Shown one piece after another: positions 307 through 10,242 of a stretch of DNA of 11,560 bases. Position 1 is the first letter of the stretch. Each line of letters opens with the position of its first letter. The stretch is from the IMG/VR virus record IMGVR_UViG_2693429774_000009, positions 1 through 11,560 of that record. One strand, written 5' to 3'. Origin of the DNA: a virus (taxonomy: Duplodnaviria; Heunggongvirae; Uroviricota; Caudoviricetes). Made by a program: the position numbers and the translations under genes. A model generated the notes under the pieces. That model was not told the origin of the DNA. It searched no databases and saw nothing but the letters and a program-made list of their open reading frames with translations.

Positions 307-354
307 GTGAAGCTGTCGGGTTACTTCATCCCGCCAATATTTTCCCACGTCCCG

Positions 355-561
<207 letters not shown>

Positions 562-599
562 TTATTGTGCGCTGCGGTGCGCGGTGAAATACCGGTACA

Positions 600-627
600 A
601 AAATGCCCCGCATCTGCGAGGCATTTT
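600..627 (-). terminator. Hairpin immediately downstream of the Rz stop, candidate terminator for the late transcript
   Basis: 8-bp perfect inverted repeat AAAATGCC (600-607) / GGCATTTT (620-627) with inner CGCA/TGCG pairing; lies about 40 nt past Rz stop codon on the minus strand. Confidence 0.3.
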
Positions 628-664
628 CCTGAAAGTCACTTGTTAAATTTCAGTGAAATTAAAA

Positions 665-1081
665 TTATTTTAAGCACTGCGTCCTGATGTATTCCTGCAG
701 GTAGTTAACCTGCGCGGTTATCTTGTCGATTCCACCTCGGAGACGGTAATAATTGAGTTCAGCATCTGCTGTAAGTCCTGGGCTTTCTCCATCGCCCATG
801 CTGCTGGCTCCGGTCGTTGACTTTGCACAGGTGGCGGAGACTTGCAGGCGCTTACGCCCAGCAGAAACATCAGCACGGAGACTTTCGATAGTCGCATTAG
901 CATCAGCAAGCTCCTTTGTGTATCTGGCGTCGAGTTCTGCTACATCACGTTGACGCTTCTGCATGTCAGCGATGATGGATGTGGCTTTGTCGCGCTGGTC
1001 TTTGTAGGCGATGGCGTTATCACGGTAATGATTAACAGCCCATGACAGGCAGAGGATGATGCAAATAACCAGAGCGGAGAT
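665..1081 (-). pseudogene. Rz: Rz i-spanin, 5'-truncated (no start codon; in-frame stop at 1094-1096)
   Basis: Minus-strand frame [32 protein letters not shown]...[22 protein letters not shown]... matches lambda Rz from residue about 8 onward; homology to lambda ends at about 1081 and no ATG precedes it. ORF-track entry 665..964 is the internal-Met part. Confidence 0.75.
718..909 (-). CDS. Rz1: Rz1-like o-spanin lipoprotein embedded in the +1 frame of Rz
   Basis: 63-aa [38 protein letters not shown]...: signal peptide, lipobox V-S-A-C, proline-rich mature part, fully nested inside Rz as in lambda. Confidence 0.6.
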
Positions 1082-1151
1082 AGAGGAACAGAGTTAAAAA
1101 GCCGGAAGCGGAATCAAATCACAGGATGACCATCTGCCAGTGGCAGGTCAT

Positions 1152-1178
1152 AAAAAAAAGGCTGCGCAATGCGCAGCC
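1152..1178 (-). terminator. Rho-independent terminator for minus-strand transcripts leaving the cargo cassette
   Basis: + strand AAAAAAAA (1152-1159) then GGCTGCGC (1160-1167), loop AAT, GCGCAGCC (1171-1178); on the minus strand this is an 8-bp GC stem followed by a U-run. Confidence 0.5.
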
Positions 1179-1607
1179 AGAACTCACAAGGAAAATGATA
1201 AAAGGAATAACACTAGTGATGTACGCATGGCGCCTCCCGCTAAGTTCTGCAATGATCAAACAGAACTCGCTACGTGCCCTTAAAACTCGATCATTTAGCC
1301 CCTCCAAGGAGGATTCACCATGCGGTTGATTTTTTAATAAACAGTAAACAAAAAAGTCAAGAATTATTCATTCTGTTCTTTCATCATCGGCCACAGCAAT
1401 ACCACAATGCCGCAGACCAGAGCGCCATCAGTCAGTACCAACATTATCCTGCTGGTGAAATCCATCATCACCATCACTAAAAGCAGGATCACAACAGCAA
1501 GCAGACACAGTTTATAAAACAATGTTCAGAAAACGCATTCAGCATGCCTAAGGTTCTATTCCTACGAATAGCCAACTTGCAACTTAAAATATTATTTATG
1601 CAGCCAA

Positions 1608-2366
1608 TTAAATTCTGGTCCTTACAATATCAACCTGAAGATTCTTATATTGTGCTGATTGATAAATGACAAACCTTTTACTACCTGCATTGAAAGAAGT
1701 AGACAAAACCAGACAATTATCATAACGAGCAAGAACATAATACCAACCATCATTATAATTAATCATTTCATATTCTTTCTTAAACTGTGGTTTGTAATAT
1801 CCTGTCAGAAATGAAAAAAGCCAAAAATATGCCACAAAAGCAATCATCACAATCTCAAAAAAATGTTTTTTTATAAATGGCTTATCATAGAAGCATGATA
1901 CCGATAAAAATCGCCCATAAGATCTTATCGAAATTGTAACCGCCAGCGCAATCGCTGCTGACAGTAGCAAAAGAGGTACCTGAATCTTCTGTCTCAATAT
2001 AGAAAACTCAATAATTGCCGGCACAAACAATAATTCCACAGCAAAATAAAGGCGAAATACATTTAGCTCTTGCATAGAATGTTTTCTTTTCACTGCGAAA
2101 AAGAATACAACACCAATACCCCAACCGATAAGAAATATAGCAATGACGATAACTGCAAAAAATAAACTTCTGGCAACATCATCAACACCTGCACCTACAA
2201 TCCACCATGGGAAGCCGTAGTAAAAAGAAGTACCCCATCCATAGAAATAAGCACTCCCCCATCCAAGGCATCCCATGTAGGCAATAAAAAGTGAAGAACT
2301 CCTGAGCAGCGCACCATCCTTCATAACCACCCCAATACAAGATGATAACATTGGCTTACAACTCAT
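1608..2366 (-). CDS. Hypothetical polytopic inner-membrane protein (about 5 predicted TM helices, aromatic-rich, about 55-aa soluble C-terminal tail); late-operon cargo
   Basis: 252-aa ORF, AT-rich relative to flanking phage genes; hydrophobic segments e.g. SLFFAVIVIAIFLIGWGIGVVFFFAV, VPLLLLSAAIALAVTISI, FEIVMIAFVAYFWLFSFLTGYY; located directly downstream of Q and the pR'-like promoter where lambda has S/R. Start may be the internal Met at 2324 (GGGGTGG RBS). No family recognised. Confidence 0.6.
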   Translation of the reverse strand: MSCKPMLSSCIGVVMKDGALLRSSSLFIAYMGCLGWGSAYFYGWGTSFYYGFPWWIVGAGVDDVARSLFFAVIVIAIFLIGWGIGVVFFFAVKRKHSMQELNVFRLYFAVELLFVPAIIEFSILRQKIQVPLLLLSAAIALAVTISIRSYGRFLSVSCFYDKPFIKKHFFEIVMIAFVAYFWLFSFLTGYYKPQFKKEYEMINYNDGWYYVLARYDNCLVLSTSFNAGSKRFVIYQSAQYKNLQVDIVRTRI

Positions 2367-2532
2367 AACAAAAGCAATTCAATGCCGTCAAGAGGTTACA
2401 GGCTAAAAAAACTCTATTACATAGCAGCCAGCATGTTTACCGTACAAGTACAACTCAGGGCATAAAAACTACTCGGCGGCAGGTTATTGAGACTCATCAA
2501 TGACATGTAAAAAACGCCCATTATTGGTGTCA

Positions 2533-2561
2533 AGTTTCCCCAAAGTTATTCAAAAAGTCAA
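2533..2561 (-). promoter_or_regulatory. pR'-like late promoter (Q-utilisation region) reading leftward into the cargo cassette
   Basis: Minus strand reads TTGACTTTTTGAATAACTTTGGGGAAACTTGACACC, closely resembling lambda pR' TTGACTTATTGAATAAAATTGGGTAAATTTGACTC; -35 TTGACT at 2556-2561, -10 homologue 2533-2538. Homology to lambda is lost a few tens of bp downstream. Confidence 0.45.
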
Positions 2562-2603
2562 TATTATGCCGTTAATATGTTGCCATCCGTGGCAATCATG
2601 GCG

Positions 2604-3227
2604 CTAACGTGTGATCGCATTCAAAATGTTGTCTGCGATTGACTCTTCCTTGTGGCATTGCACAACCAGAGCGTCATACAGCGGCTTAACAGTGCGTGAC
2701 CAGGTGGGTTGGGTAAGGTTTGGGATTAGCATCGTCACAGCGCGATATGCGGCGCTTGCTGGCATTCTTGAATAACCGACGCCTTTACATCTTCCGCACT
2801 CTTTCTCAGCAACTCTCCCCCACAGCTCTGTTTTGGCTATATCAACCGCACGGCCTGTACCGTGGCAATCTCTGCATCTTGCGCCCGGCGTAGCGGCACT
2901 ACGGCAATAATCCGCATAAGCGAATGTTGCGAGCACTTGCAGTACCTTTGCCTTAGTATTTCCTTCAAGCTTTGCCACGCCACGGTATTTCCCCGATACC
3001 TTGTGTGCAAATTGCATCAGATAGTTGATAGCCTTTTGTTTGTCGTTCTGGCTGAGTTCGTGCTTACCACAGAATACAGCCATTCCGAATCCGGCTTGTG
3101 ATTGCGCCATCCCCATAGCAGCCATCACATCAGTACCGGAAAGAGAGTCAGAAGCCGTGGCCCGTGGTGAGTCGCTCATCATCGGGCTTTTTGGCGAATG
3201 AAATTTAGCTATGCTTTCGAGTCTCAT
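2604..3227 (-). CDS. Q: Late-gene antiterminator Q (lambda-type, 207 aa)
   Basis: [94 protein letters not shown]... is essentially lambda Q including the Cys-rich zinc-binding region. Confidence 0.95.
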
Positions 3228-3586
3228 GCGCCTTCTCCCTGTACCTGAATCAATGTGAGGTTTCCGCAGAACACTGCGCCAGTATCGATATACATCTGGT
3301 TGGCAAATTTGAGTGGTTTCACTGCTGGCGTATGACCAAAGATGAACGTGTCCGCGCCTTTGATTTCTTTCACGATCCCGTCTTGTGAGTTGCTGATTCG
3401 TTCGCGGTTCCAGATTACCTGCTGATGATCAACTGGCTTTCCAAACTCGTATTTATCACAAGGATAGCAATCCCCCAATTTGAGGGATGTTTTATCCCTC
3501 GTTTTAGGGGATTTTCCCTCGTTTTGAGGGATACACCATTCTGAGATGTTTTTATTTGGTCCAAACATGCCGCCTTGCTGCTTGAT
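3224..3586 (-). pseudogene. In-frame deletion fusion: internal fragment of replication initiator O (ori iteron segment) joined to the C-terminal half of a lambda-type Ser/Thr protein phosphatase (orf221/PP-lambda)
   Basis: Minus-strand frame [42 protein letters not shown] (lambda O, iteron-encoded) continues directly into [78 protein letters not shown] (metallophosphatase C-terminus); ends 4 nt into Q start as in lambda. P, ren and nin genes are absent. Confidence 0.7.
3471..3532. repeat. ori-lambda iterons (three O-binding repeats; fourth iteron and the AT-rich region deleted)
   Basis: Three tandem copies of the reverse-complemented lambda iteron: TCCCCCAATTTGAGGGA (3471-3487), ATCCCTCGTTTTAGGGGAT (3494-3512), TCCCTCGTTTTGAGGGAT (3515-3532); deletion junction falls in the fourth iteron (TATCC at about 3462-3466). 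Confidence 0.8.
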
Positions 3587-3751
3587 AAGAGGGATTGGAT
3601 TCCAAAGTTCTCAATGCTGCTTGCTGTTCTTGAATGGGGTGTCGTCGACGACGACATGGCTCGATTGGCACGACAAGTTGCTTCGATTCTCACCAATAAA
3701 AAACGCCCGGCGGCAACCGAGCGTTCTGAACAAATCCAGATGGAATTCTGA
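3587..3751 (+). pseudogene. cII: cII 3' fragment (residues about 44-97) on the inverted segment
   Basis: + strand translation [54 protein letters not shown]-stop matches the lambda CII C-terminus. Confidence 0.8.
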
Positions 3752-3783
3752 GGTTATTACTGGAACTATCAACAGGAGTCATT

Positions 3784-4077
3784 ATGACAAATACAGCAAA
3801 AATACTCAACTTCGGCAGAGGTAACTTTGCCGGACAGGAGCGTAATGTGGCAGATCTCGATGATGGTTACGCCAGACTATCAAATATGCTGCTTGAGGCT
3901 TATTCAGGCGCAGATCTGACCAAGCGACAGTTTAAAGTGCTGCTTGCCATTCTGCGTAGAACCTATGGGTGGAATAAACCAATGGACAGAATCACCGATT
4001 CTCAACTTAGCGAGATTACAAAGTTACCTGTCAAACGGTGCAATGAAGCCAAGTTAGAACTCGTCAGAATGAATATT
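3784..4077 (+). pseudogene. O: O 5' fragment (N-terminal 98 codons of replication initiator O) on the inverted segment
   Basis: MTNTAKILNFGRGNFAGQERNVADLDDGYARLSNMLLEAYSGADLTKRQFKVLLAILRRTYGWNKPMDRITDSQLSEITKLPVKRCNEAKLELVRMNI matches the lambda O N-terminus with its RBS AGGAGTCATTATG; homology stops at 4077. Confidence 0.8.
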
Positions 4078-4206
4078 CCACCTGCTGATCTGCGACTTAT
4101 CAACTCCCACAGCTTCCGCTGTCTTCTCAGTTCCAAGCATTGCGATTTTGTTAAGCAACGCACTCTCGATTCGTAGAGCCTCGTTGCGTTTGTTTGCACG
4201 AACCAT
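4078..4206 (-). pseudogene. cII: cII 5' fragment (first 43 codons) with native RBS
   Basis: Minus strand ATG at 4204-4206 preceded by GGAAATACTTACAT; MVRANKRNEALRIESALLNKIAMLGTEKTAEAVGVDKSQISRW then diverges at the inversion junction and stops after 7 more codons. Confidence 0.8.
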
Positions 4207-4285
4207 ATGTAAGTATTTCCTTAGATAACAATTGATTGAATGTATGCAAATAAATGCATACACCATAGGTGTGGTTTATTTTGAT

Positions 4286-4325: not shown

Positions 4326-5678
<1,353 letters not shown>

Positions 5679-6353: not shown

Positions 6354-7231
6354 GGTACGTAATGAAGAAGATTGATTACAAGTCCATACCAAAACCAATA
6401 GACTCAGCATCAGAGCGAAAAAAACACAAAAAAGAGGCTGAAAAATTAGCAAATTATATCAGTTTTATTAGAAACAATGCTCACGGCGATGGCGACAAGA
6501 AGTTGCTTTCAGATGCTCGGACCCAAGCGTTCGGTATACTTCGTAAGCAGATGCAATATCGTCTTCATCCTGGCTACATAATTGAAATTCGCCCTACTGA
6601 AAGACAATTGTTCTTATTAAACTCTGTCTTTGACTTTGTAAACGTAGTTGGAGATCTTATCGACAGGTCTGTAGATAAGGATCCTGATACAAATAGTTTT
6701 CTTCTAACAAATAAAGAATACTTATATGGTAAATTCGGTATAAACGGATGGCAAAAATATGTACGCTTCTTACGTGCATTCGTTGATGCGTATAAAAATT
6801 CCGACATGATTTATACATATTTGCCTGGTGGTGATAATTGTACGCTTTCGGCAGACAATAGAATATTCATACCTGTACTTGGTCTTGGGCTGATTAATGC
6901 AGTAAATGAAAAAGATGTTATAATTGTTAAGCAGTGGCGAAAATATGAGGGATATAGATATCTGCCATGCTTTGATATATTAAAAATACAGAATAAATTC
7001 TATGTAAAAATTAAATATAAAGAAGATATTTTCTTCCTCAGAAAAAACATAGATCTTTTACAAGAACTTTCTGGTACAATAGATGTCATCTTAGGTTCTA
7101 GGTTTATAAAAGAACTGAAAGAAAGCAGGTCTTTCTCTCGTGTAGAGATAAGCGAGTCAGAGTTATGGGGTATATCAAATAATCCTGTAAACCACGCTCA
7201 CCAACGAAACCCAAACAAAAAGTGGTCATAA
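6350..7231 (+). CDS. Hypothetical protein (293 aa; likely true start at 6362 giving 289 aa), AT-rich cargo gene replacing the lambda ral/sieB region
   Basis: Long ORF with ATG overlapping N stop (ATGA) and a second ATG at 6362 preceded by GAGG; markedly lower GC than flanking N and ea10; Lys/Ile/Asn/Tyr-rich, no TM segments, no motif recognised. Confidence 0.6.
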   Translation: MRYVMKKIDYKSIPKPIDSASERKKHKKEAEKLANYISFIRNNAHGDGDKKLLSDARTQAFGILRKQMQYRLHPGYIIEIRPTERQLFLLNSVFDFVNVVGDLIDRSVDKDPDTNSFLLTNKEYLYGKFGINGWQKYVRFLRAFVDAYKNSDMIYTYLPGGDNCTLSADNRIFIPVLGLGLINAVNEKDVIIVKQWRKYEGYRYLPCFDILKIQNKFYVKIKYKEDIFFLRKNIDLLQELSGTIDVILGSRFIKELKESRSFSRVEISESELWGISNNPVNHAHQRNPNKKWS

Positions 7232-10155: not shown

Positions 10156-10242
10156 GAACGAGCATTGAGATGGCACATATGGGCGCAGATAGCACATGCA
10201 GACGTAACCAATATTCGAATTGAAGAACTGAAAGAACACCAA

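Follow-up and report, generated by a model that had tools for sequence, protein, structure and literature searches.

Truncated Rz with an intact nested Rz1 in a decayed Escherichia coli prophage: probably the outcome of a plain deletion in a 434-like late region

In the late region of a decayed lambda-like prophage of E. coli we observed a 5′-truncated Rz (i-spanin) gene, an intact Rz1 (o-spanin) gene nested inside it, and neither a holin (S) nor an endolysin (R) gene. The three features together are best explained by a plain deletion in a 434-like late region that had already decayed, a reading to which we assign a probability of about 0.88. The window, by which we mean the whole stretch of DNA analysed (11,560 nucleotides), agrees base for base with contig CYDV01000007.1 (positions 2-11561) in the draft E. 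coli assembly GCA_001284905.2, and it covers the int-to-Rz part of the prophage, which is heavily decayed.

Read from right to left, the gene order is int, xis, exo, bet, gam, kil, cIII and N; further left come a 434-type repressor gene and cro, then fragments of cII, O and ninI. In the leftmost part, Q and two membrane-protein genes are followed by what is left of Rz/Rz1, by scraps of tail-fibre genes and by the type III effector gene nleB2, of which only the 5′ end is included (scraps and nleB2 in 321-540 and 1-144). In the source contig torS adjoins int, and the best explanation is that the prophage is inserted between torS and torT of its host strain. Two further ORFs were noted on the plus strand, both in classic moron positions: one of 289 aa, AT-rich, between N and the DUF2528 gene (6362-7231), and one of 134 aa with a signal-peptide-like N-terminus (5274-5678), in the rexAB position after the repressor gene. 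Both were without a match in the local Pfam copy or in PADLOC, and they are candidates for lysogenic-conversion or exclusion genes.

Two prophages are needed to read the Rz locus. The first, L001, is an apparently complete prophage in NZ_CP027550.1; the second, which we call the sister, is the torS-torT element of E. coli Z1323HEC0011 (NZ_CP148385.1; loci L002 and L005); no other close relative came up among 5426 complete E. coli genomes. The features of the locus are the following:

665-1082, minus strand: 5′-truncated gene for a P22 gp15-type i-spanin (Rz); residue 8 onwards matches intact Rz in L001 and L002 at 100%
1094-1096, minus strand: TAA in the Rz frame, a stop upstream of the remnant, seen in the translation
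1081-1082: deletion junction, from the overlap of the BLAST segments against L001, L002 and L005 and a base-by-base comparison of the flanks
718-903, minus strand: intact Rz1 gene for an o-spanin lipoprotein precursor of 61 aa (PF06085, 2.4e-20; phrog_3198, 3.2e-28)
910-915, minus strand: Rz1 Shine-Dalgarno AAGGAG, read from the sequence, 7 nt before ATG 903

Rz lacks its first 20 nt, so that codons 1-6 are gone and codon 7 has lost two bases; the part encoding the TMD and the entire periplasmic domain follow in frame down to the stop codon at 665-667. In the minus-strand translation of 665-1126, which ends in QCLK, 138 of 138 residues from I8 onwards match the intact 145-aa Rz of L001 and L002 (WP_001357156.1, ‘lysis protein’), which starts MSRVTAIISALV. 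The periplasmic coiled-coil domain is recognised as such (PF03245 Phage_lysis, 1.3e-34; phrog_13, 1.1e-67, from profile position 8). DNA identity to intact Rz ends at 1082, and a chance match is not an issue, the 544 bp of 539-1082 being 100% identical to the intact relative. On the upstream side, the first base of the TAA stands 15 nt before the first homologous codon, ATC 1081-1079. Between this TAA and ATG 964 there is no ATG, GTG or TTG in the Rz frame, the only start-like codons being the weak near-cognates ATC, CTG and ATT, and no Shine-Dalgarno-like motif (GGAG, GAGG, AGGA or AAGG) was found in the 60 nt upstream of the remnant. A start at ATG 964, the same conserved Met that is the annotated rzpR start in K-12, would yield only 99 aa and miss the TMD. 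A start codon further upstream and a fusion of Rz to an upstream ORF were both considered, and both are ruled out by the TAA at 1094-1096. The frame of Rz lacks the combination of a start, an RBS or coupling, and an N-terminal TMD that a translatable ORF would have, and it does not lie downstream of holin and endolysin genes, both of which the relatives carry in the deleted interval. With no ATG, no Shine-Dalgarno and no coupling to the stop codon of R, Rz would be a pseudogene and is predicted not to be translated.

Rz1 lies wholly inside 665-1082, in the +1 frame of Rz. Its ORF (718-909) opens with a TTG at 909, an alternative start; judging from the sequence, ATG 903-901 is the likely one. 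Residues 1-19 form the signal peptide, followed by a lipobox, VSAC, with Cys20 (assigned by eye); the Cys is invariant in the alignment, and the mature part, in which KSPPP comes right after the Cys, is short and proline-rich. Homology, embedded frame, start signals and lipoprotein signal thus all identify it as an Rz1, whose functional partner is missing, the cognate Rz being without a start. When the window was searched by tblastn, neither lambda S and R nor the pinholins and SAR endolysins from phage 434 and L001 brought out a holin or endolysin homologue, the best value being a short chance match (E = 0.027). The first-pass annotation had described Rz homology from about codon 8, an in-frame TAA 15 nt upstream with no ATG, a complete embedded Rz1 with signal peptide and lipobox, and the absence of holin and endolysin, and on all these points it agrees with what we found. 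It had also concluded that canonical lysis is lost; since Rz is 5′-truncated without a usable start and S and R are absent, this is true, but the inference is nearly redundant, because the prophage is also without every head and tail gene.

The origin of the truncation can be read from the flanks of the junction. The window matches L001 at 100% over 539-1082 and at 99.2% over 1081-3466, and in L001 the interval between the two matches is 1066 bp long and contains the start of Rz, rrrD (a SAR-type lysozyme) and a class II holin gene. The parental flanks share only TA at the junction, a 2-bp microhomology, and on the right the break lies 15 nt ahead of the place where relatives have the ATG of the nanS-p-like esterase gene; at two positions immediately to the right of the junction the window has the bases of L002, where L001 differs. 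The junction is absent from all 5426 complete E. coli genomes. These observations suggest the following course of events. The late region would originally have been built like that of phage 434, with Q, pR′/qut, a 247-aa membrane protein gene, a DUF3927/TciB-like gene and a small ORF with a terminator, continuing into a nanS-p-like esterase gene, pinholin, SAR endolysin and Rz/Rz1. A deletion by illegitimate recombination with the TA overlap would then have brought the third base of Rz codon 7 up to this point, 15 nt ahead of the esterase gene's ATG, removing 1772 bp from a sister-like parent or ~3.0 kb from a 434-like parent. Rz, left with neither ATG nor Shine-Dalgarno and no longer translationally coupled to R, would thereby have become a pseudogene, and Rz1, which begins 180 nt inside Rz with its own Shine-Dalgarno and ATG, would have escaped by position.

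The sister shows what the region may have looked like before. The window is collinear with L005 throughout, with 6 SNPs in 11.5 kb and three structural differences: 1772 bp extra in L005 at the junction, a 491-bp inversion, and 1900 bp extra in L005 near xis. The 1772 bp (L005 16136-17907) comprise the start of Rz, the C-terminal 218 nt of rrrD and a 526-aa esterase gene of the SASA family (nanS-p-like) with its RBS. The sister therefore differs from the window in keeping the full 145-aa Rz, the C-terminal third of rrrD and the esterase gene, and it shares with it the integration site, the junction between tail-fibre and Rz-downstream sequence, the O::ninI fusion and the absence of a holin gene. 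It runs leftwards into nleC', nleH, cif, a DUF1076 gene and espJ, and no head, tail, holin or terminase gene was found anywhere in the element. The shared tail-fibre junction corresponds to one further feature of the window:

321-540, minus strand: tail-fibre gene remnants, from the pseudogene annotation of L002; L001 homology begins at 539

At ~539, tail-fibre scraps abut Rz-downstream sequence, which marks a second and older deletion junction where all morphogenesis genes were removed. Among the 5426 complete E. coli genomes searched, it is common only to the window and NZ_CP148385.1, and since both prophages carry it, their common ancestor was already defective, with the virion genes gone. 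In L005, moreover, a separate junction was observed at 16361-16369, where a deletion with a 9-bp overlap joins the esterase gene, without its last 319 nt, to the middle of rrrD and has taken away the holin gene; this nanS-p::'rrrD junction is private to the NZ_CP148385.1 genome.

Two histories of the lysis region are possible, each with two events needed. The ancestor may have kept S and R, in which case the deletion in the window would have been ~3.0 kb long in the 434 geometry, or it may already have carried the nanS-p::'rrrD fusion, and the deletion would then have taken 1772 bp. The frequency of the nanS-p::'rrrD and 539 junctions was asked in order to put the deletions in sequence, and among complete genomes both occur only in NZ_CP148385.1.

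Other rearrangements were noted relative to the sister, which has neither the inversion nor the 1900-bp deletion of the window. The inverted segment (3587-4077, 491 bp) is 100% identical to the sister in reverse; it puts the O N-terminus on the plus strand (3784-4176) and cuts cII after ~44 residues (4054-4266, minus strand). A repeat search found no inverted repeats of note at its ends, and the same inversion was seen in the Logan contig ERR178178_149. The 1900-bp deletion, at 10177-10179 with a 3-bp overlap (ATA), took DUF1382, TraR/DksA and other small genes between the DUF1317 gene and xis. Next to Q, the NinI phosphatase is reduced to its C-terminal 114 residues (3224-3568, minus strand); P, ren and ninB-ninH are all deleted in the prophage, and in the sister the NinI part is fused to the O N-terminus to give a 219-aa ‘replication protein’.

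As the junction is known from one short-read draft assembly only, and is unique to it, we considered that the join at 1081-1083 might be a chimeric or collapsed assembly, with the intervening segment really present. In fact, it lies 1083 nt from the contig end, E. coli genomes contain multiple copies of Rz and of the 1083-1175 stretch, and an independent Logan contig of run ERR178178 ends at 1115, not crossing the junction. However, a false join by a graph assembler needs a shared k-mer, and the flanks share 2 bp only; they are, moreover, true neighbours in the sister prophage, in the right order and orientation, and the contig has no Ns. An assembly error is accordingly improbable.

Upstream of the junction, the late region is well preserved, with the following features:

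1083-1363, minus strand: tail end of the accessory module with a 62-aa ORF at 1119-1307, 99.9% identical to phage 434
1152-1178, minus strand: strong intrinsic terminator, found by scan, with an 8-bp stem (7 GC pairs) followed by T8
1364-1522, minus strand: DUF3927/TciB-like small membrane protein of 52 aa (PF13064, 3.4e-14; phrog_1470; TciB in phage 434)
1608-2351, minus strand: 247-aa polytopic membrane protein WP_001302581.1 (phrog_1521, ‘unknown function’, 5.6e-153)
2517-2600, minus strand: late promoter pR′/qut-like region downstream of Q, 90-92% identical to an annotated HK97-group site
2604-3227, minus strand: intact Q antiterminator of 207 aa (PF03589, 6e-58; antitermination protein in L001 and L002)

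The HK97-group annotation at the pR′/qut match reads ‘promoter / similar to lambda Qut site’. The first gene after this late promoter, also in 434-like phages, is that of the 247-aa protein, which is widespread in E. coli prophages; it has a precomputed PF27470 TfpB match, and it gave no match in the local Pfam copy, where PF27470 was not reproduced, nor in PADLOC. For the DUF3927 protein the local Pfam match is only to its family of unknown function, and the label ‘TciB’ (PHROGs, phage 434) is by similarity only, the tci names going back to the annotation of phage P1. The 62-aa ORF is the equivalent of CPT_434_70, a ‘putative membrane protein’ of phage 434. The terminator at 1152-1178 separates the accessory genes from the Rz remnant; one is annotated at the equivalent place in phage 434, and in the relatives it stands upstream of the nanS-p and holin genes.

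The integrity of Rz1 raises the question of whether it has been kept by selection as a domesticated outer-membrane lipoprotein, for example in envelope stress or vesiculation. Its Shine-Dalgarno, ATG, signal peptide and lipobox are all kept, and an orphan rzoR persists in K-12 Rac, but several observations make this very unlikely. Neither Rz nor Rz1 has a single substitution relative to the intact phage alleles, so that the deletion must be recent and has left no time for selection to act or show, and only one strain has the junction. The end of the deletion happens to lie 180 nt before Rz1; the gene thus escaped by position and not by selection, and its intactness is uninformative on selection. 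As for its expression, a strong terminator lies upstream, and on the minus strand no promoter-like site was found between 1100 and 1700, the only match being a weak one at 1746-1719. In lambdoid late transcription only a Q-modified polymerase from pR′/qut would read through such a terminator, and Rz1 could still be transcribed from pR′ only if such a polymerase passes 1152-1178. At most, the element might make an orphan o-spanin after induction; the spanin step would be impossible without Rz, holin and endolysin. For the DLP12 o-spanin RzoD it has been reported that overproduction is toxic and that deletion of rzoD reduces vesicle output (PMC9782134, PMC12287860), which speaks for retention by selection. 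By this analogy, an orphan Rz1 expressed from pR′ when Q is made after SOS derepression might alone perturb the outer membrane, by toxicity or vesiculation; if true, what the deletion left in this effector-carrying prophage would be a spanin-half ‘moron’ whose phenotype shows at the level of the host, but we regard this as a long shot.

The first-pass annotation had explained the locus differently, by a single recombination event in which a cargo cassette was inserted and replaced S, R and the first Rz codons together. The cassette does directly abut the truncated Rz in the window, and it is AT-rich and moron-like. On the other hand, the module (1081-2468) is 99.9% identical to phage 434 (OL657226.1) over 1388 bp, in the same order, which identifies it as the 434-type accessory module between Q/pR′ and the lysis genes, and at 97.9-99.9% identity it stands beside intact holin, endolysin and Rz/Rz1 genes in phages 434 and 2B8 and in L001-type prophages. 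Moreover, ~70 complete E. coli genomes carry window positions 539-2700 with ~1.07 kb extra, most with holin, rrrD and lysis protein annotated. Since the module sits beside intact lysis genes in the relatives, it predates the damage and was not the agent of lysis-gene loss. The sequence right of the junction is the normal nanS-p upstream region, still present in the sister, and a 2-bp overlap is typical of a deletion. A replacement by the cassette is therefore hardly credible; of the coincidence between breakpoint and left edge of the cassette, the position holds and the meaning given to it does not, this edge being simply the end point of the deletion, 15 nt ahead of the ATG of the esterase gene.

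Finally, that the remnant is a working i-spanin, started at ATC 1081 or another near-cognate and lacking only 7 cytoplasmic residues of Rz, can hardly be entertained: its TMD and whole periplasmic domain are undamaged and in frame and a gene caller gave a 138-aa model, but no Shine-Dalgarno lies within 60 nt, the coupling to the R stop codon is gone, initiation at ATC is very inefficient in E. coli, the positively charged R3 by which the Rz TMD is oriented is absent, and a spanin has no substrate role when holin and endolysin are absent. The model in question is the source collection's gene call, a product read from the non-canonical ATC 1081 (665-1081, minus strand), which is likely an artefact of homology-guided calling that hides the pseudogene. 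In an index of 153 billion genes the literal Ile-first product has no record, and the Met-first truncated product occurs in the source assembly only.

With a plain deletion as the preferred reading, the torS-torT effector prophage described here cannot lyse its host, and such prophages survive mainly as carriers of type III effectors, nleB2 here and nleC', nleH, cif and espJ in the sister. The membrane-protein cassette is a normal late-operon module of 434-like phages and not the cause of the damage. In the source assembly, the 138-aa gene called as ‘Phage_lysis’ ought to be annotated as a pseudogene, and the importance of the case goes little beyond annotation; the sister pair, however, is a small, clean example of stepwise prophage decay by short-microhomology deletions.

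Among known systems, the locus can be compared with two phages and a cryptic prophage. With gene 15/Rz1 of P22 the window shares the spanin allele family and the embedded architecture: Rz is 87% identical to gp15, and Rz1 is 93% identical to the annotated P22 Rz1 (186 nt) and equal to it in length. The P22 pair differs in following the holin gene 13 and the lysozyme gene 19, and in having its start codon.

In phage 434 the late region runs from Q through a terminator, a 247-aa membrane protein, TciB and a 62-aa membrane protein with an internal terminator to a SASA/nanS-p esterase, further terminators, a class II pinholin, a SAR endolysin, the i-spanin and the o-spanin. The module, its order and the terminator are shared with the window, whose right breakpoint falls just upstream of the position of the esterase RBS. 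By contrast, phage 434 is viable, has a complete lysis cassette and an 82-type Q, and its Rz and Rz1 are of the lambda type, 57% and 36% identical to those of the window.

The closest parallel in kind is the Rac prophage of E. coli K-12 MG1655 (NC_000913.3 1423345-1423644), also a defective lambdoid prophage, in which rzpR is an N-terminally truncated Rz pseudogene with an intact nested 61-aa rzoR and no adjacent holin or endolysin gene. The two remnants are 51% identical in Rz. That of Rac is of the lambda/434 type and has lost ~54 codons including the TMD, whereas that of the window is of the P22 gp15 type and has lost 7 codons, with the TMD-coding sequence kept; the neighbours are ydaW and trkG in Rac and the 434-type accessory module in the window. 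By this direct comparison the window belongs to the class of cryptic-prophage spanin remnants of the Rac rzpR/rzoR type, and it represents a private, recent instance of a pattern of prophage decay that is already known, being annotated in the Rac prophage of K-12.
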